Source: Escherichia coli
GTDB taxonomy: Bacteria; Pseudomonadota; Gammaproteobacteria; Enterobacterales; Enterobacteriaceae
NCBI RefSeq assembly: GCF_024223415.1
Contig: NZ_CP100500.1
Length of the DNA: 64,000 bases
Reading direction: 5' to 3' (one strand)
The translations under genes and the position numbers were made by a program. Below are positions 2,136-53,515 of the stretch, one piece after another; position 1 is the stretch's first letter; each line of letters opens with the position of its first letter. The notes below the pieces were generated by a model that did not search any database, was not told the DNA's origin, and saw only the letters and a list, made by a program, of their open reading frames with translations.

Positions 2136-2690
2136 ATGTACGCACTTAAACCTATGGGGATACCAGGCAAAGCCCCGGCGCATGTGAAAGCCTGGACACA
2201 GCAGGAAGATGATTTGCTGATCACCCTGTACCCGCAGCACACAGCACGAGATATCGCCGGACGTCTGGGGCGCAGCTACGAAGGAGTTTGCGGCCGCATT
2301 TCTCGTCTGCGTGAACAGGGCAGGATTGGCATCAAGCAGCAAAGACTAAGCGATGAGATGATCGCCACGCTCATCAGGAACCGCCACACCAGGTCCCTCA
2401 AGGAACTGGCACACATGGCGAAAGTTTCGACACGCACGGTAACCAACCGATTGAGGGCGCTGGGCTACAGCCTGATCAAATGCGGGGATCTGCATAAAAA
2501 CACCGTCTACAGCGACCGCATCGTTGAGATTATCAGACAGTTACACGACGAGGAGGGCCTGACGTTCAGGGAAATCGCACAGCGCCTTAGCCACGAACTA
2601 CAGCCGAACCCTACCCCGACACTGGCTCAACGTCTCTACTGGCGGCGCACAGCATCCGACGCCGTATTCCGTGAACTGTTACCAGATTGA
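2136..2690 (+). CDS. hypothetical prophage early protein (184 aa), helix-rich and basic
   Basis: ORF with GGAG Shine-Dalgarno; no family recognised. Confidence 0.5.
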   Translation: MYALKPMGIPGKAPAHVKAWTQQEDDLLITLYPQHTARDIAGRLGRSYEGVCGRISRLREQGRIGIKQQRLSDEMIATLIRNRHTRSLKELAHMAKVSTRTVTNRLRALGYSLIKCGDLHKNTVYSDRIVEIIRQLHDEEGLTFREIAQRLSHELQPNPTPTLAQRLYWRRTASDAVFRELLPD

Positions 2691-3013
2691 GCAATCACCA
2701 TGTACACACAAAAAAACCGCTTGCAACAACAAACCGGAACAGGGTACGCTTCCCATGCACCTCATAAAACGGGTGTCGGGATTCTCAACCTGCTGACAAA
2801 CGAAGCGCACAACCGCGCCAGCGGTTTTTTTGTGCGTACTGTATTGCCACGTCTTTTTCGCATCAGAATTATGGTGGGGCGTACGGGGCCGACTTCGGTC
2901 GGGCCGGTTTCTTCGTTTGCCGGTGTTGAGAACCCCGTACGTCTCGCCACCCCGAGATTCTCAACTCTGGTTGGTGAGTATCCAAAAACTCACAAACGAA
3001 GAGGCCAAACACC

Positions 3014-3232
3014 ATGGCAAACCGCAAACAGCGCCGCGCTATCGCTGCGCAGCGTCACATCCAGACCGAAATCAACCGCAGACTCTTCCGCGCCCACAAC
3101 ATCGCGCGAATCATGCACGCCAACATGCTGCATGAACGCAGTAACGCGTTATCAAACCTCTATTCCGCTTCCGTTTTCAGCTATCTGGCGGACGACCTGC
3201 GCGAGCTGCAAGACCTCATTAACCAGCACTGA
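3014..3232 (+). CDS. hypothetical small basic protein (72 aa)
   Basis: ORF with Shine-Dalgarno GAAGAGG upstream. Confidence 0.35.
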   Translation: MANRKQRRAIAAQRHIQTEINRRLFRAHNIARIMHANMLHERSNALSNLYSASVFSYLADDLRELQDLINQH

Positions 3233-3304
3233 TAAACAACCCGAAGCCATCCTGCGCCCGTTCGCGGGAGGCTTCCGCACATCTGTAGTCGGGAGGATTG
3301 CGCC

Positions 3305-3673
3305 ATGATTCTGGCTGACGATTTTCTGGAGTACCTGAACAACACCGAGCGCGACCTGTACGCGCGCGTTCTCACCCGTTACGAGAAATACAAACTTTCG
3401 CTGCCAGAACATCAACTCCGCGAAGGCGATATCGACATTGAAGGGCGCTACATCGTCAGGCACCTCATAGCGGGCTACGGCATCTGGCGTGTCACCGGAC
3501 GTGAGCATTCATTGCTGACCATCTGCCAGAGTCCGTCCGGCGTGATAACGGAGATCGTCGCTGATAGTCTGCGACTCACCCATCACAGCGCCACCCCGGA
3601 AGAAACGCTGGCAGAAACCCAGCGTCTGTGTCGCGTCATTGCCAACGCCGCCCTCCGCGCAGACAGGAGGTAA
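3305..3673 (+). CDS. hypothetical prophage early protein (122 aa) immediately upstream of replication gene
   Basis: GGGAGG Shine-Dalgarno; ends 3 nt before gene A start. Confidence 0.5.
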   Translation: MILADDFLEYLNNTERDLYARVLTRYEKYKLSLPEHQLREGDIDIEGRYIVRHLIAGYGIWRVTGREHSLLTICQSPSGVITEIVADSLRLTHHSATPEETLAETQRLCRVIANAALRADRR

Positions 3674-3676
3674 GCG

Positions 3677-6166
3677 ATGGAGTTCGTCAGAGACTGGCAA
3701 AAACCGCGCCCCGCTATCGGGCGCGAAGGCTTACCCGTACCTGAAACCGCACTGGATACCATCCTGAAGTGTTACCGCGCGGACGAAGAGCGCGCCCTGA
3801 ACGCTGAAGAGCAGGGTCATCCGCTTGCGGGCACAACCATCGGTAACGCGATCGACAAGTGGGAAGGCGCACAGGAGCGCCAGGAAGAGGCCATCACGCT
3901 CACACAGGAAGCGAAGAGACGCCCACCCACCCTCATTGAGGAAACCCTCAAAGAGCTGGACACCCTGCCAAAGTGGTTGAGGCTGCCACTGATTAAGCAC
4001 CTGAACTTCTTAAGGCGCAAACAGGAGGACGAACAGCAGAAAGGCAAACGCGGCAAGGACACCCGCAAATACGAGCGCTTCGTACAGAACGGGATCCCCG
4101 CACGTCTTTGCCGTATTCGTGAGATTAACGATCGCTTTGCACCGTTGAGTTTTCAGGCCGCTGCCATGCGCGAGAGTCTGGAAGAGTTAATCACACTGCC
4201 GAACCTGAGCCGTGAACGCATCCAGAAAATAGCCGTACTGCTTGCCAGCGCCGTTAAAATGCATCTTGCCGACGCAATGGACAAGGCCCGCGAAATAACA
4301 GGGAACGACAAAGACGACAACCTGAACAACTGGCTGATTGCCTACCAGTATATTGGTCGCCGTGTCCTGAAGCTGGGGATCACCCCACCATACTGGAGCG
4401 CCCTTGAACTCCGTCCCGACCGCAGAAGCCCCCCGGACCTGACACTGGTACCGGGCGCTGTTTTGCGCCTGAACGACGCCGAATGGTGGAATAAAAAACT
4501 TCGCCAGATGCACGACGTCTGGCGTGAGGAACTTTTACGTGCAGCGGGCCTTGTATCCCGCCAGACCTCCATTTATGTGAGCCGGGAAGCACTGGCAGAC
4601 TTCCGCGAGAAACAGGCCCGTACCCGCGATTTTCTCAAAGCGCACGACGTGGAGAACGAAGACGGCGAACGCATCAGCCTGGAAGATATCTACTACACCA
4701 GTACATCCAACCCGCATAACCGCCGCAACGAGATGATGGCGTGCGTCAAGGGAATGGAGCTTATCGCACAGGAACGTGGCGACGTGGCCTTCTTCGTCAC
4801 GGTCACAGCCCCGTCTCGTTTTCACAGCGTCACCGACGCCGGTACCCTTAACCCGAAATACAAAGGCACAACAGTAAAAGACGCCAGCGACTATCTGGTT
4901 TATAACTTCTTCGCCTCCGCCCGCAAACTCATCAAAAAAGAGAAGCGGGGCTGGTACGGCATTCGCACCGTTGAGCCTCACCACGACGGCACGCCCCACT
5001 GGCACATGCTGGTATTCACAAGCCCCGAGAACGAAGCGCGCATCACGGAAATCATGTGCAATGCCGCCATCCGTGAAGACCGTGCAGAGCTGGGCGACGA
5101 CATTACCCCGCGCTTCAAGTGCGAGAAGATAGACCCCGAAAAAGGTACGCCAACCAGCTACATCGCCACCTACATCGGCAAAGGCATTGACGCCGCCGCA
5201 TTCGGCGACACGGATCCCAAAACAGGCAAACCGCCCGTTGACCACGAAAGCGGAAAACCTATGGCGGACACCGTGGAAAACGCCGTCGCCTGGGCACGCC
5301 TGCATCGCATTCGCCAGTTCCAGTTCTTTGGCCTTCCCTCACGTCAGGTGTGGCGCGAGTTCCGCCGCCTTGCCGGACAAATGGCACGCAACCCGAAGGG
5401 GCCGCAGGCACTGACCAACCCCAAAGCCGACGCTCTGCTGGCCGCCGCCGACGTGGGGTGTTTTGCCAGCTACATTATGCATCAGGGCGGCGTGCTCATT
5501 CCCCGCAGTGAATATCTGGCCCGCACGGCCTACGTCACCGCAGAAGAGCCGAACAACTACGGCGAGTTCCCCGACCGTATTTACGGTGTACGGATGCCGG
5601 AACTGGGCGATGAGTTCACGTTATGTACCCACCCGGAAGAGTGGAAACTCGTCAGAAAAGAACCGGAATCAGACGACCGCACGGGCGAGGGTTTTGACCT
5701 TCAGGGCGACCCCGTCGCCCCTTGGACTCGTGGCAATAACTGTCACCCTGACGAAAAAACAACCAACAACAGCACACAAACCGGACAGTCAGAGTGGGCA
5801 AAACTGCCCCCCTTACCCCCATCGTCGGACGGTTTTGTGAGCTGGTTTAAGTCGCTTAAGAGGCCGGACAGGAAAAAACTACAAAGATTGCTCAAAAAAC
5901 GCACCGAAGAGAGTCGCCAGAACGCCAGCGGCGGCACCGACACACCCACCGACACCATTAACCTGGGCGTTGTGCTGCCGGAACTGCCGGAAATCGTGCA
6001 AGTCCGCCGCGATCTGGAAGCGCTGGGCGCGGACTTCCCCGAAGCAATGGCCCATTCCGTCTTTATGGGTGCCCGCGTTCGTCTGGGTAACGGTCGCACC
6101 GTTCACCGCGACGAGCAGACCGGGCGCATCACCGTCACCAGTCTGCAACCGGAGGCGAAACCATGA
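3677..6166 (+). CDS. rolling-circle replication initiator, P2 gpA-like (829 aa)
   Basis: Large ORF with AGGAGG Shine-Dalgarno; contains the HWHMLVF histidine-hydrophobic motif typical of P2 A-type endonucleases. Confidence 0.85.
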   Translation: MEFVRDWQKPRPAIGREGLPVPETALDTILKCYRADEERALNAEEQGHPLAGTTIGNAIDKWEGAQERQEEAITLTQEAKRRPPTLIEETLKELDTLPKWLRLPLIKHLNFLRRKQEDEQQKGKRGKDTRKYERFVQNGIPARLCRIREINDRFAPLSFQAAAMRESLEELITLPNLSRERIQKIAVLLASAVKMHLADAMDKAREITGNDKDDNLNNWLIAYQYIGRRVLKLGITPPYWSALELRPDRRSPPDLTLVPGAVLRLNDAEWWNKKLRQMHDVWREELLRAAGLVSRQTSIYVSREALADFREKQARTRDFLKAHDVENEDGERISLEDIYYTSTSNPHNRRNEMMACVKGMELIAQERGDVAFFVTVTAPSRFHSVTDAGTLNPKYKGTTVKDASDYLVYNFFASARKLIKKEKRGWYGIRTVEPHHDGTPHWHMLVFTSPENEARITEIMCNAAIREDRAELGDDITPRFKCEKIDPEKGTPTSYIATYIGKGIDAAAFGDTDPKTGKPPVDHESGKPMADTVENAVAWARLHRIRQFQFFGLPSRQVWREFRRLAGQMARNPKGPQALTNPKADALLAAADVGCFASYIMHQGGVLIPRSEYLARTAYVTAEEPNNYGEFPDRIYGVRMPELGDEFTLCTHPEEWKLVRKEPESDDRTGEGFDLQGDPVAPWTRGNNCHPDEKTTNNSTQTGQSEWAKLPPLPPSSDGFVSWFKSLKRPDRKKLQRLLKKRTEESRQNASGGTDTPTDTINLGVVLPELPEIVQVRRDLEALGADFPEAMAHSVFMGARVRLGNGRTVHRDEQTGRITVTSLQPEAKP

Positions 6167-6709: not shown

Positions 6710-7084
6710 ATGAATAAACAGGATTTTGGACTTGATACCCTTTTGAGTATGCATGGTTACCAGCATCACATGGATAACGGGTACTGGTGGAAAATTAAGG
6801 CTTACCGGGTAAGTCCAAGTCCGTTCAGACCTCACGGGATACGCTACAATCTGACGTTACATGACCGCTACAATTCGCGTGTGTTTGGTATGGACAACGC
6901 ACATGGAATAAAACCGCCAAAGAAGGGAAGATTTACAGGAAAGTTAACTGTTTATGATCATGTGCACCGTACCCCGGTGGATAAAGGTTATCCCTATGAG
7001 TTTGTATCCGCAGAACAATTGTTATCTGATTTCTTTGATAACGTTGATCGGCTCATTAACGAAGTTACAAAGGGGAAAGCATGA
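6710..7084 (+). CDS. uncharacterised His-rich small protein (124 aa), first gene of cargo operon
   Basis: ORF follows an AT-rich promoter-like region with direct repeats (6640-6705); stop overlaps downstream start; no recognisable family. Confidence 0.6.
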   Translation: MNKQDFGLDTLLSMHGYQHHMDNGYWWKIKAYRVSPSPFRPHGIRYNLTLHDRYNSRVFGMDNAHGIKPPKKGRFTGKLTVYDHVHRTPVDKGYPYEFVSAEQLLSDFFDNVDRLINEVTKGKA

Positions 7085-7467
7085 AAGCCCGCATCGGGAT
7101 CATCCCGGAAAAAGTCCTGCGTCAGCGCCTGATTGAAATTGCCAAGGGGGAGCGGAAACCACACCCCGACGAGCCAAGGGTATGGTTTTCATCCATCAAT
7201 GCGGCGGGTCAGGCGCTGAGCAATGAAAATATCTCCCTTCTTCGTCTTATGGATGAGGAGAAACCGCAGACCATGACCGAACTTGCGGAGTTATCCGGCA
7301 GAAAACTGAGTAACCTGTCTGTAACCCTGAAAATGCTGAGCAGCTACGGTTTTGTCAGTCTGGAAAAGAAAGGAAATACCGTACACCCGAAGGCACTTTT
7401 TACCGATTTTGAAATCATCGTTGATCCGTCCGTCGGTTCAGTACATCGCGCCACCGCCCGCCCCTGA
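7081..7467 (+). CDS. uncharacterised protein with predicted winged helix-turn-helix (128 aa), second gene of cargo operon
   Basis: ATGA overlap with upstream ORF; segment TMTELAELSGRKLSNLSVTLKMLSSYGFVSLEK resembles MarR/ArsR-type wHTH; followed by hairpin terminator. Confidence 0.6.
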   Translation: MKARIGIIPEKVLRQRLIEIAKGERKPHPDEPRVWFSSINAAGQALSNENISLLRLMDEEKPQTMTELAELSGRKLSNLSVTLKMLSSYGFVSLEKKGNTVHPKALFTDFEIIVDPSVGSVHRATARP

Positions 7468-7480
7468 AGTGTGCAATAAA

Positions 7481-7505
7481 CAGCCCCGGTCGGGGCTGTT
7501 TTTTA
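7481..7505. terminator. bidirectional intrinsic terminator between convergent cargo operons
   Basis: GC hairpin CAGCCCCGGTCGGGGCTG flanked by T-run on the + strand and A/T-run on the - strand. Confidence 0.6.
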
Positions 7506-7877
7506 TTCCAGAATCAGCTGTTCAGGTGTGCAGCCGTACAGTCTGGCAAGGCGCTCAATATTTGCCCTGCGCGGGCGTTCTGTTCTTTCGAATTCGGACA
7601 CGGTAGCCTGCCTGATACCCAGCGCATCCGCCACCTGCTTTTGCGTCATTCCGCGATAGATTCGCCACGCCGCCTGCATGGTGCAGCCACGTTCCGAGAG
7701 GATGTTGACCACCTCGTTGGGATACAGCGTATCAGGCGATGCACTCGGTTCGTTCTGGACGTCCTCGTAGAGTTCGTCAAGGTCGCTGTCTCCTGCCAGT
7801 TTTTCAAACAACGCCACTGGCAGAATGACGGATACCCTGTTACCCGCACCGTCAGTAATAAACTGAATCTGACTCAT
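7503..7877 (-). CDS. XRE-family HTH protein, HigA-like antitoxin candidate (124 aa)
   Basis: AGGAGG Shine-Dalgarno 6 nt upstream; C-terminal HTH MTQKQVADALGIRQATVSEFE; downstream of a RelE/ParE-like ORF. Confidence 0.65.
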   Translation of the reverse strand: MSQIQFITDGAGNRVSVILPVALFEKLAGDSDLDELYEDVQNEPSASPDTLYPNEVVNILSERGCTMQAAWRIYRGMTQKQVADALGIRQATVSEFERTERPRRANIERLARLYGCTPEQLILE

Positions 7878-7950: not shown

Positions 7951-8223
7951 TTAGTATGTTGTCGAGGTTCTCCGCTGAATACGGAGGATCCTGATAACCA
8001 CTATCTGCCCTCCCTCAATCGTGAACCTGACACGGTAATGATTTACCCTGAGTCTGTACTCCCCGCCCGAGTCAGTGAGCTTTTTAATATCCAGATTCTG
8101 GAACTTCGGATAGCCATAAAGCGCGTTAACTTTCTCGCGTAAGGATTTCTGATCCCTCGCTGGCAAAACCCGTAAATCTTTGATTGCCCGAGGGGTCCAC
8201 ATGATTTCAGTCGTCATAAACAC
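7951..8223 (-). CDS. RelE/ParE-superfamily toxin-like protein (about 83-90 aa; start at 8223, 8217 or 8202)
   Basis: C-terminal EYRLRVNHYRVRFTIEGGQIVVIRILRIQRR matches the RelE/ParE pattern; toxin-first (HigB/HigA-like) order. Confidence 0.6.
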   Translation of the reverse strand: MFMTTEIMWTPRAIKDLRVLPARDQKSLREKVNALYGYPKFQNLDIKKLTDSGGEYRLRVNHYRVRFTIEGGQIVVIRILRIQRRTSTTY

Positions 8224-32889: not shown

Positions 32890-35394
32890 ATGTCACAAAC
32901 TATCGACCTGACCCTGGACGGCCTGTCCTGCGGTCACTGCGTTAAACGCGTGAAAGAAAGTCTCGAACAGCGCCCGGATGTGGAACAAGCGGATGTGTCT
33001 ATCACTGAAGCGCACGTTACCGGGACTGCCAGTGCAGAACAGCTGATCGAAACCATCAAACAAGCGGGTTATGACGCATCTGTAAGCCACCCAAAGGCTA
33101 AACCGCTGGCGGAGTCATCAATCCCGTCGGAAGCACTGACAGCGGTTTCTGAGGCGCTTCCGGCAGCGACCGCCGATGACGATGACAGCCAGCAGTTGCT
33201 GCTGAGCGGCATGAGCTGCGCCAGCTGTGTCACCCGCGTACAAAATGCGTTGCAAAGCGTACCGGGCGTCACTCAGGCACGGGTAAACCTGGCGGAGCGT
33301 ACTGCGCTGGTGATGGGCAGTGCCTCCCCACAAGATTTAGTGCAGGCGGTGGAAAAAGCGGGCTACGGTGCGGAAGCGATTGAAGATGACGCGAAACGCC
33401 GCGAGCGCCAGCAAGAAACCGCCGTCGCTACGATGAAGCGCTTCCGCTGGCAGGCAATTGTTGCATTGGCTGTGGGTATCCCGGTAATGGTCTGGGGGAT
33501 GATCGGCGATAACATGATGGTCACCGCTGACAACCGCAGCCTGTGGTTGGTTATCGGCCTGATAACCCTGGCAGTGATGGTTTTCGCCGGCGGCCATTTT
33601 TACCGCAGTGCATGGAAAAGCCTGCTGAACGGTGCAGCGACGATGGATACGCTGGTGGCGCTGGGTACTGGCGTGGCGTGGCTCTATTCGATGAGCGTCA
33701 ACCTGTGGCCGCAATGGTTCCCGATGGAAGCGCGACATCTTTATTACGAAGCCAGCGCGATGATTATCGGTCTGATTAATCTCGGCCATATGCTGGAAGC
33801 GCGCGCACGTCAGCGTTCTTCAAAGGCGCTGGAGAAATTACTCGATTTAACTCCGCCGACGGCGCGCCTGGTTACTGACGAAGGTGAAAAAAGCGTGCCG
33901 CTGGCGGAAGTTCAGCCAGGCATGCTACTGCGCCTGACGACGGGCGACCGCGTGCCAGTAGATGGCGAGATTACCCAGGGCGAAGCATGGCTGGATGAAG
34001 CGATGCTGACGGGCGAACCTATTCCGCAGCAAAAAGGCGAAGGCGATAGCGTCCATGCCGGTACAGTGGTACAGGACGGTAGCGTGCTGTTTCGCGCCAG
34101 TGCGGTTGGTAGCCATACCACGCTATCAAGGATCATTCGTATGGTGCGCCAGGCCCAGAGCAGTAAGCCAGAAATCGGTCAGCTGGCGGATAAAATCTCA
34201 GCCGTATTTGTGCCGGTAGTAGTGGTTATTGCGCTTGTCAGTGCGGCAATCTGGTATTTCTTTGGTCCGGCACCGCAGATTGTCTATACCCTGGTGATTG
34301 CCACCACGGTGCTGATTATTGCCTGCCCGTGTGCGCTGGGGCTGGCGACGCCGATGTCGATTATTTCCGGCGTCGGGCGGGCGGCTGAGTTTGGCGTGCT
34401 GGTGCGGGACGCCGACGCGCTGCAACGCGCCAGTACACTCGATACCGTCGTGTTCGATAAAACCGGGACGCTGACCGAAGGGAAGCCGCAGGTTGTCGCA
34501 GTGAAAACATTTGCTGATTTTGACGAAGCGCAGGCGCTGCGTCTGGCGGCGGCACTGGAACAAGGTTCCAGCCATCCGCTGGCACGGGCGATCCTCGATA
34601 AAGCAAGCGATATGCAGCTGCCGCAGGTCAACGGTTTCCGCACATTGCGCGGGCTGGGCGTGAGCGGTGAAGCTGAAGGTCATGCGTTATTGCTGGGCAA
34701 TCAGGCGCTGTTAAATGACCAGCAAGTTGATACTAAAGCGATTGAAGCAGATATTTCAGCTCAGGCATCGCAAGGGGCAACGCCTGTGCTGCTGGCGGTT
34801 GACGGGAAAGCGGTAGCCCTGCTGGCTGTACGCGATCCGTTGCGTAGTGATAGCGTGGCGGCGCTGCAACGTCTGCATAAAGCGGGATATCGTCTGGTGA
34901 TGTTGACCGGGGATAACCCAACCACCGCCAATGCGATCGCCAAAGAAGCAGGGATTGATGAGGTGATCGCCGGGGTGCTGCCGGACGGTAAAGCCGAAGC
35001 GATTAAACGCCTGCAAAGTGAAGGACGTCAGGTGGCAATGGTGGGCGACGGCATTAACGACGCGCCAGCGCTGGCTCAGGCGGATGTCGGCATTGCGATG
35101 GGTGGCGGCAGTGATGTTGCTATTGAAACCGCGGCGATTACCCTGATGCGCCATAGCCTGATGGGTGTTGCGGATGCGCTCGCTATTTCCCGCGCAACGC
35201 TGCGCAACATGAAGCAGAACCTGCTCGGCGCGTTTATCTACAACAGTATCGGTATTCCGGTTGCCGCCGGTATTTTGTGGCCGTTTACTGGAACACTGCT
35301 TAACCCGGTGGTTGCCGGAGCGGCAATGGCGCTCTCGTCGATTACCGTAGTGAGTAACGCCAACCGGTTGCTGCGGTTTAAACCGAAGGAATAA
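32890..35394 (+). CDS. copA: Cu(I)-translocating P-type ATPase
   Basis: 834-aa ORF with two N-terminal CxxC metal-binding motifs (GLSCGHC, GMSCASC), CPC and DKTGT motifs. Confidence 0.95.
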
Positions 35395-36955: not shown

Positions 36956-37125
36956 GTAAGCGTCGCATCAGGCAATGGTACTCGGATGCCGGATGCGGCG
37001 TGAACGCCTTATCCGGCCTACGGTTCAGGCACAGGTTTGTAGGCCTGATAAGACGCGTAAGCGTCGCATCAGGCAATGGTGCTCGGATGCCGGATGCGGC
37101 GTGAACGCCTTATCCGGCCTACGAG
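36956..37125. repeat. REP (BIME) cluster, right side of IS insertion
   Basis: Repeated GCCGGATGCGGCGTGAACGCCTTATCCGGCCTAC units. Confidence 0.6.
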
Positions 37126-37623: not shown

Positions 37624-38418
37624 ATGGATCTGTTGTACCGGGTAAAAACGCTTTGGGCCGCGCTGCGCGGTAATCATTACTCCTGGCCTGCCATCGATAT
37701 CACCCTCCCCGGCAATCGCCATTTTCATCTGATTGGCAGTATTCATATGGGTAGCCACGATATGGCTCCCCTGCCCGCCCGTTTGCTCAAAAAGCTCAAA
37801 AACGCCGATGCGCTGATCGTCGAGGCGGATGTTTCCACCAACGATACGCCTTTTGCTAATTTGCCTGCCTGCGAGGCGCTGGAAGAGCGCATTAGCGAGG
37901 AGCAACTCCAAAAACTGCAGCACATTAGCCAGGAGATGGGCATTTCTCCCTCACTCTTTTCTACCCAACCGCTGTGGCAAATCGCGATGGTTCTTCAGGC
38001 GACGCAGGCACAAAAACTGGGGCTGCGGGCAGAATACGGTATCGATTACCAGCTATTGCAGGCGGCGAAGCAACAACATAAACCCGTGATTGAACTGGAA
38101 GGGGCGGAAAACCAGATTGCCATGTTGCTCCAGCTCCCTGACAAAGGACTGGCGCTGCTGGACGATACGCTGACCCACTGGCATACCAACGCACGGTTGC
38201 TGCAACAAATGATGAGCTGGTGGCTGAATGCGCCGCCGCAAAATAATGAAATAACGCTGCCCAATACGTTCAGTCAGTCGCTGTACGATGTGCTGATGCA
38301 TCAGCGAAATCTCGCCTGGCGGGATAAATTACGCGCCATGCCGCCGGGGCGATATGTGGTCGCGGTCGGTGCACTACACCTGTATGGAGAAGGGAATTTG
38401 CCGCAAATGTTGCGCTAA
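37624..38418 (+). CDS. ybaP: TraB-family protein
   Basis: 264-aa ORF in conserved K-12 position. Confidence 0.85.
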   Translation: MDLLYRVKTLWAALRGNHYSWPAIDITLPGNRHFHLIGSIHMGSHDMAPLPARLLKKLKNADALIVEADVSTNDTPFANLPACEALEERISEEQLQKLQHISQEMGISPSLFSTQPLWQIAMVLQATQAQKLGLRAEYGIDYQLLQAAKQQHKPVIELEGAENQIAMLLQLPDKGLALLDDTLTHWHTNARLLQQMMSWWLNAPPQNNEITLPNTFSQSLYDVLMHQRNLAWRDKLRAMPPGRYVVAVGALHLYGEGNLPQMLR

Positions 38419-38500
38419 AAAAATGGCCAATATCGCTATTGGCCCGTCAAAGAGGAATTTCATTTTTTTATTATTATGCCGTCACTTTAAGCGACGGTGT
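38417..38500 (-). ncRNA. chiX: ChiX (MicM/SroB) small RNA
   Basis: Minus-strand sequence ACACCGTCGCTTAAAGTGACGGCATAATAATAAAAAAATGAAATTCCTCTTTGACGGGCCAATAGCGATATTGGCCATTTTTTT in the ybaP-ybaK intergenic region matches recalled ChiX with terminator. Confidence 0.65.
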
Positions 38501-44142: not shown

Positions 44143-44180
44143 ACGGTGGTTGCCGGATGTAAAATATGAAAAATATGTAG

Positions 44181-44265
44181 GCATGATAAGACGCGCCAGC
44201 GTCGCATCAGGCATCGAGATGCCAAATGCCAGATGCGGCGTGAACGCCTTATCTGGCCTACGAAC
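44181..44265. repeat. REP (BIME) element
   Basis: GCCAGATGCGGCGTGAACGCCTTATCTGGCCTAC REP consensus. Confidence 0.6.
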
Positions 44266-51577: not shown

Positions 51578-53515
51578 TCAAATGGGGCGGATACTTTCTT
51601 CATCCAGCTCCGCATCGAAAAACCGACGCAGGGTCTGAATATTATTATCCGCAATAATGGACTCGCGCGCCTGCGCAAGTTTTTCTTCGTATATCGCCTG
51701 ACGCCACTCCAGCGGCGTACGCACCGCGGGATTATCATCTTCAACGATAGTCAGTTCAACCGTTGAACCTTTTAACATGCTCAACGCTTCAGCCAGTTTT
51801 TGCTGTGCACCGCGGTTGTTCAAATGCCGCTGAGAGGAGCGCAAATGCAGACATACTGCGTTGTCGCTCTCCTCTTTCCAGGCATTTAACGCCACCTGTT
51901 CGACCAGTTTTGGTAGCGAAAGTTGGCTCACCTGTGCCGCCCACGGGTCGCGCTCAATGGCTTCTGCCGCTAGCTTCGCCGCCAGTTCCGGCGTTTTTTC
52001 ATGTTCCAGCGCTTTTTTCAGCGCCTTCGGCGTGGCGACCACTTCTTTTTGCTGTATCACCGGAGTGGTCGCCTTCCAGCGATACGCTTCTTTTTTGGCT
52101 GGCGCTTTTTCCAGCGCCGATGGCACCGGACGCGCCTGAACGCGATCGGTGACCGAAGCCAGTCTTTCCAGCGCAGCGTTATTCACCGGCCGCGCGCGGG
52201 TAGCGGCTGCCGGTTCACTCTTTTTTGCTTTGGTTGCTCCCTGCACGCGCTGCAACTGCTGGCGCGCCGCCAGCACCTGGCTGGTGGTTTCCGGGAGCGG
52301 TACAGTCGGTGCCTGCTGCGGCGCTGATTGCGGTTGCGGTTGCGGCGGCACCTGGGTTGGCGTCATTACTGCCGTTGGCGCGACGGGTGCAAAGGACTGG
52401 CGTGGCACTTCTGGCTCAGGCAGCGGCATACGCGGATGGAACGCCAGCGCGCGCAGCAGCGTCATCTCAACGCCCATGCGGCGGTCCGGCGCATACGGTA
52501 ATTCTTTGCGACCAATCAACAGCGTCTGATAGTAAAGCTGAATATCCGTCGGCGGTATGGTGCGCGCCAGTTCACGCATCCGCAGCTCGATGGCGGCCAT
52601 GTCGTTGCCAAGTGCAGCAGGCGAAAGTTGTACCATCGCAATACGATGCAACAGGCCGAGCATTTCCACCAGCAACGCTTCCCACTCGATACCACGGGCA
52701 GCGGCTTCATTAATCAGCGCCATTACGCGCTCGCCGTTGGCCTCGACCATCGCTTCAACCAGCGACAGCGCCTGATCGTCGTCAAGCGTACCCAGCATCG
52801 CACTGACCGCCTGGGTTGAAACCTGGCCGTCACCGCTGGCAATCGCCTGGTCGGTCAGACTTAAGGCATCTCGCAGGCTGCCTTCAGCGGCGCGCGCCAG
52901 CAATTGCAGCGCCCGCGGCTCGTGAGCGATATGTTCTTCATTGAGGATGTGCTCAAGTTGATGGCGAATTTGCTCGACATCCAGCGCCTTGAGATGAAAT
53001 TGCAAACAGCGCGACAAAATCGTCACCGGCAATTTCTGTGGATCGGTCGTCGCCAGCAGAAACTTAACGTGCTCCGGCGGCTCTTCAAGAGTTTTTAACA
53101 GTGCGTTAAAGCTGTGGCGCGACAGCATATGCACTTCGTCGATGAGATAAACTTTGAAACGACCACGCGCCGGAGCGTACTGGACGTTATCCAGCAGGTC
53201 GCGAGTGTCTTCAACTTTGGTGCGCGAGGCGGCGTCGATTTCAATCAGATCGACAAAGCGCCCCTGCTCGATTTCACGACAGTTATCGCACACGCCGCAC
53301 GGCGTCGCGGTAATGCCGGTTTCGCAGTTTAGCCCCTTCGCCAGCAGTCGGGCGATAGAGGTTTTTCCGACGCCACGGGTACCGGAAAAAAGATAAGCAT
53401 GATGAATACGCCCTAACGACAAGCCGTTCGCCAGTGCGGTCAGCACATGTTCCTGGCCGACGACGTCAGCAAAGGTTTGTGGGCGCCATTTTCGGGCTAA
53501 GACCTGATAACTCAT
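51578..53515 (-). CDS. dnaX: DNA polymerase III subunits tau/gamma
   Basis: AAA+ ATPase N-terminus (GTRGVGKTS); contains the A_AAA_AAG frameshift site. Confidence 0.95.
   Translation of the reverse strand: MSYQVLARKWRPQTFADVVGQEHVLTALANGLSLGRIHHAYLFSGTRGVGKTSIARLLAKGLNCETGITATPCGVCDNCREIEQGRFVDLIEIDAASRTKVEDTRDLLDNVQYAPARGRFKVYLIDEVHMLSRHSFNALLKTLEEPPEHVKFLLATTDPQKLPVTILSRCLQFHLKALDVEQIRHQLEHILNEEHIAHEPRALQLLARAAEGSLRDALSLTDQAIASGDGQVSTQAVSAMLGTLDDDQALSLVEAMVEANGERVMALINEAAARGIEWEALLVEMLGLLHRIAMVQLSPAALGNDMAAIELRMRELARTIPPTDIQLYYQTLLIGRKELPYAPDRRMGVEMTLLRALAFHPRMPLPEPEVPRQSFAPVAPTAVMTPTQVPPQPQPQSAPQQAPTVPLPETTSQVLAARQQLQRVQGATKAKKSEPAAATRARPVNNAALERLASVTDRVQARPVPSALEKAPAKKEAYRWKATTPVIQQKEVVATPKALKKALEHEKTPELAAKLAAEAIERDPWAAQVSQLSLPKLVEQVALNAWKEESDNAVCLHLRSSQRHLNNRGAQQKLAEALSMLKGSTVELTIVEDDNPAVRTPLEWRQAIYEEKLAQARESIIADNNIQTLRRFFDAELDEESIRPI
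52220..52226 (-). other. dnaX: dnaX programmed -1 ribosomal frameshift heptamer (A_AAA_AAG) producing gamma
   Basis: Plus-strand CTTTTTT at 52220-52226 corresponds to mRNA A AAA AAG at ...ATKAKKSEP... Confidence 0.7.

Follow-up and report, generated by a model that had tools for sequence, protein, structure and literature searches.

The stretch of Escherichia coli DNA analysed here (64,000 nucleotides (nt) of contig NZ_CP100500.1, assembly GCF_024223415.1; hereafter the window) carries a complete prophage of a P2-like myovirus, in which genes for the portal, terminase, capsid, sheath, tape measure, tail, and fibres are present. In its early region, an open reading frame (ORF) of 184 amino acids (aa) ends at position 2690 and an ORF of 72 aa starts at position 3014, so that the bounds given by the initial annotation for the gap between them, 2691–3013, are exact. 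That annotation had described the gap as noncoding, had pointed out two strong hairpins, and had suggested that it might serve as an internal attenuator or terminator or else encode a small RNA of the early region. Both hairpins were found: the first, AACCGCGCCAGCGGTT, lies at 2811–2826 and runs into a tract of seven T residues that ends at 2831, and the second, GGCCGACTTCGGTCGGGCC, lies at 2887–2905, with an actual stem of 2889–2893/2898–2902 and a UUCG loop. What the annotation missed is that the two hairpins are parts of two separate RNA genes, and that the informative features are the unpaired a′ and b′ segments and two sets of target sites rather than the hairpins. We consider it likely that the gap encodes an IsrK-like leader RNA and a C4/CI-type antisense RNA, both unannotated, as a fairly ordinary member of the family known from phages P1, P4, and Gifsy-1. 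The features of the gap and of the gene that follows it are as follows.

2702–2724, plus strand: left arm of a 23-nt inverted repeat, GTACACACAAAAAAACCGCTTGC (partner 2817–2839, 91% complementary; repeat search)
2721–2750, plus strand: putative internal promoter (−35 TTGCAA at 2721–2726, 18-nt spacer, −10 TACGCT at 2745–2750)
2757–2831, plus strand: IsrK / P4 SeqA-like leader small RNA (Rfam RF01394, full length)
2757–2776, plus strand: 5′ hairpin of the IsrK-like RNA, part of the isrK match
2782–2789, plus strand: a1 site, TTCTCAAC, complementary to a′, inside the IsrK-like RNA
2797–2805, plus strand: b1 site, CAAACGAAG, complementary to b′, inside the IsrK-like RNA
2811–2826 with a U-run to 2831, plus strand: intrinsic terminator (hairpin 1; terminator scan)
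2867–2954, plus strand: C4 / P4 CI-type antisense RNA (Rfam RF01695)
2872–2888/2933–2949, plus strand: C4 outer stem of 17 base pairs (the Rfam structure and the minimum free energy (MFE) structure agree)
2889–2902, plus strand: C4 UUCG hairpin (hairpin 2; the two structures again agree)
2903–2924, plus strand: second C4 hairpin, whose 12-nt loop (2908–2919) holds b′
2911–2919, plus strand: b′ core, CTTCGTTTG, in the loop of the second C4 hairpin
2925–2932, plus strand: a′, GTTGAGAA, in the unpaired C4 junction
2958–2965, plus strand: a2 target site, TTCTCAAC, complementary to a′ (exact 8-mer)
2965–3003, plus strand: local hairpin between a2 and b2 (stem 2974–2979/2988–2993)
2993–3004, plus strand: b2 target site, CAAACGAAGAGG, complementary to the b′ loop
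3014–3232, plus strand: 72-aa homologue of the P4 epsilon derepression protein, the presumed controlled gene

An Rfam scan of the window at the gathering thresholds assigned the two RNAs to their families. The C4 family matched 2867–2954 on the plus strand with 79.2 bits (gathering score, 45; model positions 1–87 of 87; E = 7.5e-14), and the isrK family matched 2757–2831 on the plus strand with 59.8 bits (gathering score, 50; model positions 1–77 of 77). Both proposals of the initial annotation were borne out, each by a different hairpin: hairpin 1 is the intrinsic terminator closing the IsrK-family small RNA, and hairpin 2 is the inner UUCG stem-loop of the C4-family antisense RNA. A permissive Rfam scan of 2600–3100 returned C4 and isrK and no other family, and ARAGORN found no transfer RNA or transfer-messenger RNA in the window. 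Structure prediction, which had been suggested as a check, showed that the 323-nt plus-strand RNA is stable beyond its shuffled versions (−125.5 kcal/mol, z = −6.6; 0 of 100 shuffles equally stable). An RNA from the minus strand was rejected as a candidate, with z = −3.9 and no Rfam match on that strand. The C4 part alone (88 nt) gave −48.6 kcal/mol (z = −4.7; 0 of 200 shuffles), and its MFE structure is identical to the Rfam structure.

The complements of a′ and b′ are present twice and in the same order, as a1/b1 in the IsrK-like RNA and as a2/b2 just before the 72-aa ORF. The b2 site contains the Shine-Dalgarno (SD) sequence AAGAGG (2999–3004) of this ORF, 9 nt before its start codon (ATG 3014), and a downstream site on the ribosome-binding site (RBS) of the first controlled gene is also found in P1, P4, P88, and PA2. 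All three window copies of the 9-mer CAAACGAAG fall inside the cassette, against 0.66 copies expected in 64 kb. The a 8-mer TTCTCAAC occurs four times, three of them in the cassette, and the cassette copies of both words all lie within about 220 nt. A search for further C4 targets elsewhere in the 64-kb window found none, the prophage part holding no other candidate. The segment around the second pair of sites can itself fold (2950–3020, MFE z = −2.6), and an anti-SD sequence, CUCU (2965–2968), can pair with AGAG (3000–3003) of the SD sequence. The motifs CTCTGG and AGAGG are kept in relatives, and by our own reading P4 has a CTCC...GGAGG arrangement.

Comparison with relatives provided the most direct view of these pairings. 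We aligned the 340 nt upstream of the start codon from 80 viral contigs encoding a homologue of the 72-aa protein (77–85% identity), and covariation was assessed in a set of 40 relatives comprising 33 distinct sequences. Among these, the IsrK 5′ hairpin, the terminator, and the C4 stems form a near-invariant scaffold, whereas six short segments vary, and do so in concert. The 27 pairs of the C4 stems are 100% paired, with compensatory changes at four of them. For b′–b1, seven of nine pairs are compensatory and pairing is 100%; for b′–b2, seven of 12 pairs are compensatory; and a′–a1 and a′–a2 each have eight pairs, four of them compensatory, with at most four pair types per position. The a1/b1 sites thus show 11 compensatory pairs in total with a′/b′, the a1 helix being 92% paired. 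When the partner was shifted by 1–3 columns as a slide control, pairing fell from 97–99% to about 40%. Mean duplex energies were −10 to −14 kcal/mol for cognate and −4 to −6 kcal/mol for non-cognate combinations, and nucleotide diversity was 0.33 in the six cores, 0.096 in other parts of the cassette, and 0.068 in the C4 stems. Five a-types and ten b-types occur in 12 combinations that include clear reassortants, for example the a-type of relative L016 joined to the b-type of relative L004. We therefore take the covariation of all six segments as strong evidence that the C4 RNA pairs with both pairs of sites and that the specificity is under diversifying pressure.

One relative, L037, carries a 17-nt insertion (within its positions 270–320) that results in two C4 b′ loops of different specificity, CTTTGCTCT and CTTGTGTAG. 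Its b1 and b2 sites fit the second b′ loop only, and the flanking CCGG stems are palindromic; the arrangement looks like a natural recombination intermediate. We also considered cross-talk through the same code on other types of element. All nine viral contigs with exactly the b′/a′ code of the window carry the same epsilon-like cargo, with no satellite or lambdoid partner among them, and this candidate was set aside.

The 72-aa ORF scored 34.4 bits against the Pfam model PF25738 "Derepression" (gathering score, 27), for which P4 epsilon itself scored 170 bits. It was similar to P4 epsilon in BLASTP (29% identity, E = 6e-10), matched phrog_3688 (E = 2e-38), and is labelled "derepression protein" by RefSeq. 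A relationship to P1 Icd was rejected, as BLASTP showed no similarity. Two further genes follow on the same strand.

3305–3673, plus strand: 122-aa ORF (orf122), downstream gene
3677–6166, plus strand: 829-aa P2 gpA-type replication endonuclease A (phrog_91 "nicking at origin of replication", E = 4.5e-218)

The 829-aa protein is 31% identical to P2 A (E = 7e-72), and both this gene and orf122 are likely to be subject to polarity. An E. coli locus with 99.9% identity shows the prophage segment that would adjoin the window on its left, where an integrase is encoded along with a repressor 38% identical to P2 C (E = 2e-23). Similar DNA was found in 1,097 of 5,426 complete E. coli genomes, at one to five places per genome, and mostly covers the cassette and the epsilon-like gene at 80–90% identity.

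The IsrK-like RNA is preceded by a putative promoter at 2721–2750, which is the positional equivalent of PLE in P4 and of P1c4/P51b in P1; a putative transcription start lies at about 2757. Its geometry matches that of the annotated P1 promoter and of the P4 and P88 sequences compared side by side. A second promoter-like site at 2844–2872 (TTGCCA-17-AATTAT) was treated as a chance occurrence: the start would fall within the C4 stem, the −35 element is TCGCCA in many relatives, and 0.7 such sites are expected by chance. The 23-nt inverted repeat brackets the putative promoter and the IsrK body, its right arm (2817–2839) coinciding with the loop, the 3′ half, and the U-tract of the IsrK terminator. 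Both arms are invariant across relatives, and in the MFE structure of the whole gap the repeat supplants the terminator hairpin. The left arm also marks the left edge of the conserved cassette, with homology among relatives that have four different left flanks starting at about 2706. P88 has the repeat, and P4, P1, and the Stx phage PA2 are without it. Judging from the predicted fold, the repeat could act as an antiterminator dependent on the promoter of origin, such that early transcripts started upstream would pass the IsrK terminator and those started internally would stop there.

Taken together, the locus is probably a P1 c4/P4 cI-type antisense-RNA immunity cassette in the early region of a complete P2-like prophage, gating an epsilon-like anti-repressor and the downstream replication genes. 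The analysis demonstrates the RNA families, their structure and complementarity, the three-way covariation, the homology to epsilon, and the phage context, whereas promoter use, processing, the sign and outcome of regulation, and the target of the epsilon-like protein are inferred. Transcripts would begin at about 2757 from the weak internal promoter (around 2721–2750), possibly joined by read-through from upstream. Most of them would end at the terminator (2811–2831), giving an IsrK/SeqA-like leader RNA that holds the target copies a1 and b1. Read-through transcripts would include the C4-like RNA (about 2872–2950), which, by analogy with P1 and P4, may be released through RNase P cleavage and trimming of its 3′ end. 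The b′ loop and the a′ junction of this RNA are predicted to bind b2 (2993–3004) and a2 (2958–2965), respectively. Because b2 includes the SD sequence, the pairing should block translation of the 72-aa epsilon-like protein. As in P1 and P4, it should further silence the 122-aa ORF and the endonuclease A gene, either by Rho-dependent polarity or by premature termination. The a1/b1 copy in the leader may either aid termination, as in the seqA model of P4, or titrate C4, as in the IsrK model of Gifsy-1. The net effect would be a second, RNA-based layer of immunity. In the lysogen, it would prevent both replication and the expression of an anti-repressor directed at the P2 C-type repressor, with a specificity set by two short, exchangeable sequence codes.

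Other explanations of the gap have to be weighed against this one. The initial statement that no convincing coding frame is present needs qualification, as an ATG-initiated ORF of 202 aa (2700–3308) spans the entire gap. A continuous ORF had been named as the observation that would speak against a noncoding stretch, and this one is present without any sequence correction, yet it has no coding signature, and we judged it to be noncoding. It is very improbable that this ORF, or a 145-aa form from ATG 2871, is a protein-coding gene of the "Ash family", despite a weak match to Pfam Phage_ASH (E = 0.0019), the annotation of an "ash family protein" at this place in some records, and a frame from ATG 2871 in which 73 of 81 relatives have no stop for about 148 codons. 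The ATG at 2871 is the 5′ base of the C4 stem, and 2871–3308 shares the frame of the longer ORF and overlaps the whole epsilon-like gene. The Phage_ASH (PF10554) score, 19.1 bits, is under the gathering score of 26. On the obsolete "cI protein" coding sequence of P4 (L084 8168–8584), which lies across the CI RNA and seqC, this model reaches 59.7 bits; the product of P4 cI is an RNA, as is well established (PMC4825925). Variable columns are spread flatly over the three codon positions (31/35/38, against 24/17/37 in the epsilon-like gene), and frameshifting indels in five variant types cut the 2871 frame to 16–64 codons while all RNA pairings are kept. Moreover, ORF 2700–3308 overlaps the Pfam-supported 72-aa gene out of frame and is not called by RefSeq in near-identical genomes. 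Since the frame has no coding signature and PF10554 matches the P4 CI RNA region, "Ash family protein" calls at this place very probably annotate RNA genes. A plain intra-operon attenuator, in which a single intrinsic terminator is accompanied by incidental GC-rich hairpins and no RNA acts in trans, would agree with the canonical terminator at 2811–2831 between early genes. It would leave unexplained two Rfam matches above the gathering score, the three-way compensatory covariation of six segments, and a cassette conserved in P1, P4, P88, and Stx phages, and we give it little credence.

A more serious rival is positive control of the type described for Gifsy-1, which we think somewhat unlikely to be the principal mode here. 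The region would then be mainly an mRNA leader in which pairing of a1/b1 with a′/b′ in cis ("structure A") masks the start of a leader ORF at ATG 2871; the short IsrK RNA acting in trans would open this ORF, ribosomes there would switch on the epsilon-like gene, and a free C4 repressor would be secondary. In Gifsy-1 this model is backed by genetics, native gels, and 30S footprinting (PMC4825925), and the MFE structure of 2757–3020 in the window forms exactly the long a1b1:a′b′ helix that it calls for. The start codon at 2871 is conserved, with the frame open to the extent given above. In contrast, a2/b2 co-vary with a′/b′ as tightly as a1/b1 do, which the operator model of P1 and P4 needs and the cis-structure model does not. 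The leader frame runs out of frame over the whole epsilon-like gene instead of stopping near its start, shows no codon periodicity, and is cut short in the five natural variants that retain the RNA pairing. By inspection, no obvious SD sequence precedes ATG 2871, and the epsilon-like gene has its own, inside b2. The two modes may coexist.

Several points weigh against the P1/P4-type cassette that we prefer. Folded by itself, the IsrK segment has an unremarkable stability (z = −1.0), and non-canonical pairs occur in its second hairpin. The candidate promoter is weak in this copy, with seven of 12 consensus positions, and a consensus scan missed it; relatives have the better pair TTGCCA/TACATT. 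In the spacer at 2727–2744, CAACAAACCGGAACAGGG, and in the −10 element, this copy stands apart from all 40 other distinct relatives, which have TGCCGCAATCAGTCAGGT / TACATT, while the flanks are conserved; its internal promoter may be weakened or under different regulation. The close kinship of the relatives, whose epsilon-like proteins are 77–85% identical, inflates shuffle controls; the slide control and the many independent pair types speak against an artefact. That the epsilon-like protein acts on the phage's own C repressor is conjecture on our part. Finally, IsrK of Gifsy-1 acts positively through a translated leader ORF, orf45, and constitutive STnc1160 did not counteract IsrK there (PMC4825925); in view of these results, a purely P4-like repressor role is unproven for this subfamily.

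Some other features of the window were recorded. Within 1407–2690, just upstream of the cassette, a minus-strand ORF of 161 aa matches phrog_6315 and has a faint SLATT-like match (E = 0.085), and the 184-aa ORF on the plus strand encodes a protein with multiple helix-turn-helix (HTH) motifs (phrog_323 "D5-like transcriptional regulator"). These two ORFs look like a moron-type insertion that interrupts the early operon. Farther downstream, a minus-strand ORF at 7951–8223 encodes a ParE-family toxin (Pfam ParE_toxin, E = 4e-9) and is followed by an HTH_3 protein at 7503–7877, likely a toxin-antitoxin pair of the prophage, which is adjoined by a winged-helix protein of the HVO_A0114 type at 7081–7467 on the minus strand. 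The prophage appears to end at about 31–32 kb, ahead of an 834-aa ORF (32890–35394). The chromosomal flank (32000–64000) holds the small RNA sroB (38417–38500, minus strand), the dnaX frameshift element (52181–52245, minus strand), and REP/naRNA4 elements at 37042–37119 and 44180–44258.

The kind of element described here is already known, and this copy is an unannotated member of the C4/CI–IsrK antisense immunity family in a P2-like prophage. Beyond the literature that we searched are the combinatorial diversity of the a/b codes, the joining of the cassette to an epsilon homologue in a helper-type phage, and the lineage-specific 23-nt inverted repeat around the leader. A broader proposal, which we regard as speculative and unlikely to hold in full, is that P2-like phages of the P88 group possess a second layer of RNA immunity whose two-part code (at least five a-types and ten b-types in 12 combinations, shuffled by recombination) gates an epsilon-type anti-repressor of their own P2 C-type repressor together with the replication genes; P4 would have borrowed its immunity-plus-epsilon module from a helper, or the reverse, and the 23-nt repeat would possibly be an antiterminator. 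If this were true, helpers, satellites, and co-resident prophages could cross-regulate one another through shared RNA codes.

For annotation, the analysis adds two regulatory RNA genes and their operator sites to a stretch that is blank in RefSeq and appears as "Ash family" or hypothetical protein in other records. It suggests that many P2-like prophages have a P1-style bipartite immunity, in which a protein repressor is combined with an antisense RNA gating an anti-repressor, and it links a helper phage to the immunity/derepression module of the satellite P4. The cassette may also bear on the recovery of phage P88 after mitomycin C treatment (PMC5285337). In addition, the natural orthogonal two-site RNA codes, at least 12 on one invariant scaffold, offer a test bed for RNA–RNA specificity and heteroimmunity.

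The initial annotation had recommended comparison with the early region of phage 186, but P4, P1, and Gifsy-1 proved to be the fitting systems; the P2 early region has neither an isrK nor a C4 cassette. Statements on the P4 mechanism are based here on the summary in PMC4825925 and on established knowledge. In P4 (NC_001609), the immunity region (PLE – seqA leader/timm – cI RNA – seqC ... epsilon ... alpha) has the same order and strand logic as the window. An isrK-family leader with a terminator was found on the PLE leader with 60.8 bits, and the CI RNA matched the C4 family with 74.9 bits. Its a/b-type target pair also occurs twice, once upstream and once at the RBS of the ORF that comes next, with epsilon and then a replication gene lying downstream. 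The recognition codes differ, being GTGAGAA for a and TTCACAGG for b in P4. The epsilon-like gene directly follows the target site in the window, whereas another reading frame intervenes in P4; its product has 72 aa, compared with 95 aa in P4, at 29% identity; and the spacing from leader to C4 is about 35 nt, compared with about 110 nt. P4 is a satellite, whereas the present element is a full P2-like myovirus with virion genes, and its replication gene encodes a P2 A-type nickase in place of the alpha primase of P4. We accordingly rejected the element as a P4-like satellite, as neither an alpha primase-helicase nor a virion-gene-free satellite gene set was found, although its immunity is P4-like.

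The immI operon of P1/P7 (P51 – a1 b1 – c4 – a2 b2 – icd – ant) shows a near-identical geometry of a1, b1, C4, a2, and b2. In the P1 record (NC_005856), all five are annotated, and a start codon lies about 10 nt after b2, a spacing like that in the window; sequence similarity to the window is seen around the shared string GAATTATGGTGGGGCGT. The P1 C4 RNA matched with 68.8 bits, and its leader scored 51 bits with the c4-a1b1 family but just 35.1 bits with isrK; C4 and c4-a1b1 are placed in a single clan in Rfam. A terminator-like hairpin follows b1 in P1, and the antisense RNA likewise gates an anti-repressor function. The controlled genes are icd and ant in P1, compared with the epsilon-like gene, orf122, and A in the window, which has no Ant.

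Hershko-Shalev et al. (2016, PMC4825925) attributed the control of induction in Gifsy-1 of Salmonella to IsrK, to STnc1160, which is a processed RNA of some 80 nt located within orf45, and to AnrP, an anti-repressor encoded downstream. IsrK was termed a structural homologue of P4 SeqA, and STnc1160 was likened to CI; binding of Hfq and the short and read-through isoforms of IsrK were also reported (PMC4825925). Compared by its published description, the isrK – orf45/STnc1160 – anrP region resembles the window in its succession of an IsrK small RNA with a read-through isoform, a further RNA (about 80 nt) that shows complementarity to IsrK, and a gene of the anti-repressor type. It differs in that Gifsy-1 is a lambdoid prophage whose cargo is AnrP rather than an epsilon-like protein, and in that the mechanism proposed in the publication works by activation, through a leader ORF of 45 codons, a role of a2/b2 as operators being outside that model.

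The Stx phage PA2, also lambdoid, has both RNAs and its own a/b code, and its downstream cargo is a different protein, a hypothetical one of 215 aa. The codes of PA2 and of phage P88 differ from that of the window, and the RNAs are unannotated in both records. P88, a P2-like phage (Xuanwuvirus), matched isrK with 63.6 bits and C4 with 80.5 bits, and these RNAs are followed by genes for a derepression protein, a hypothetical ORF, and a replication protein, in the same order as in the window.

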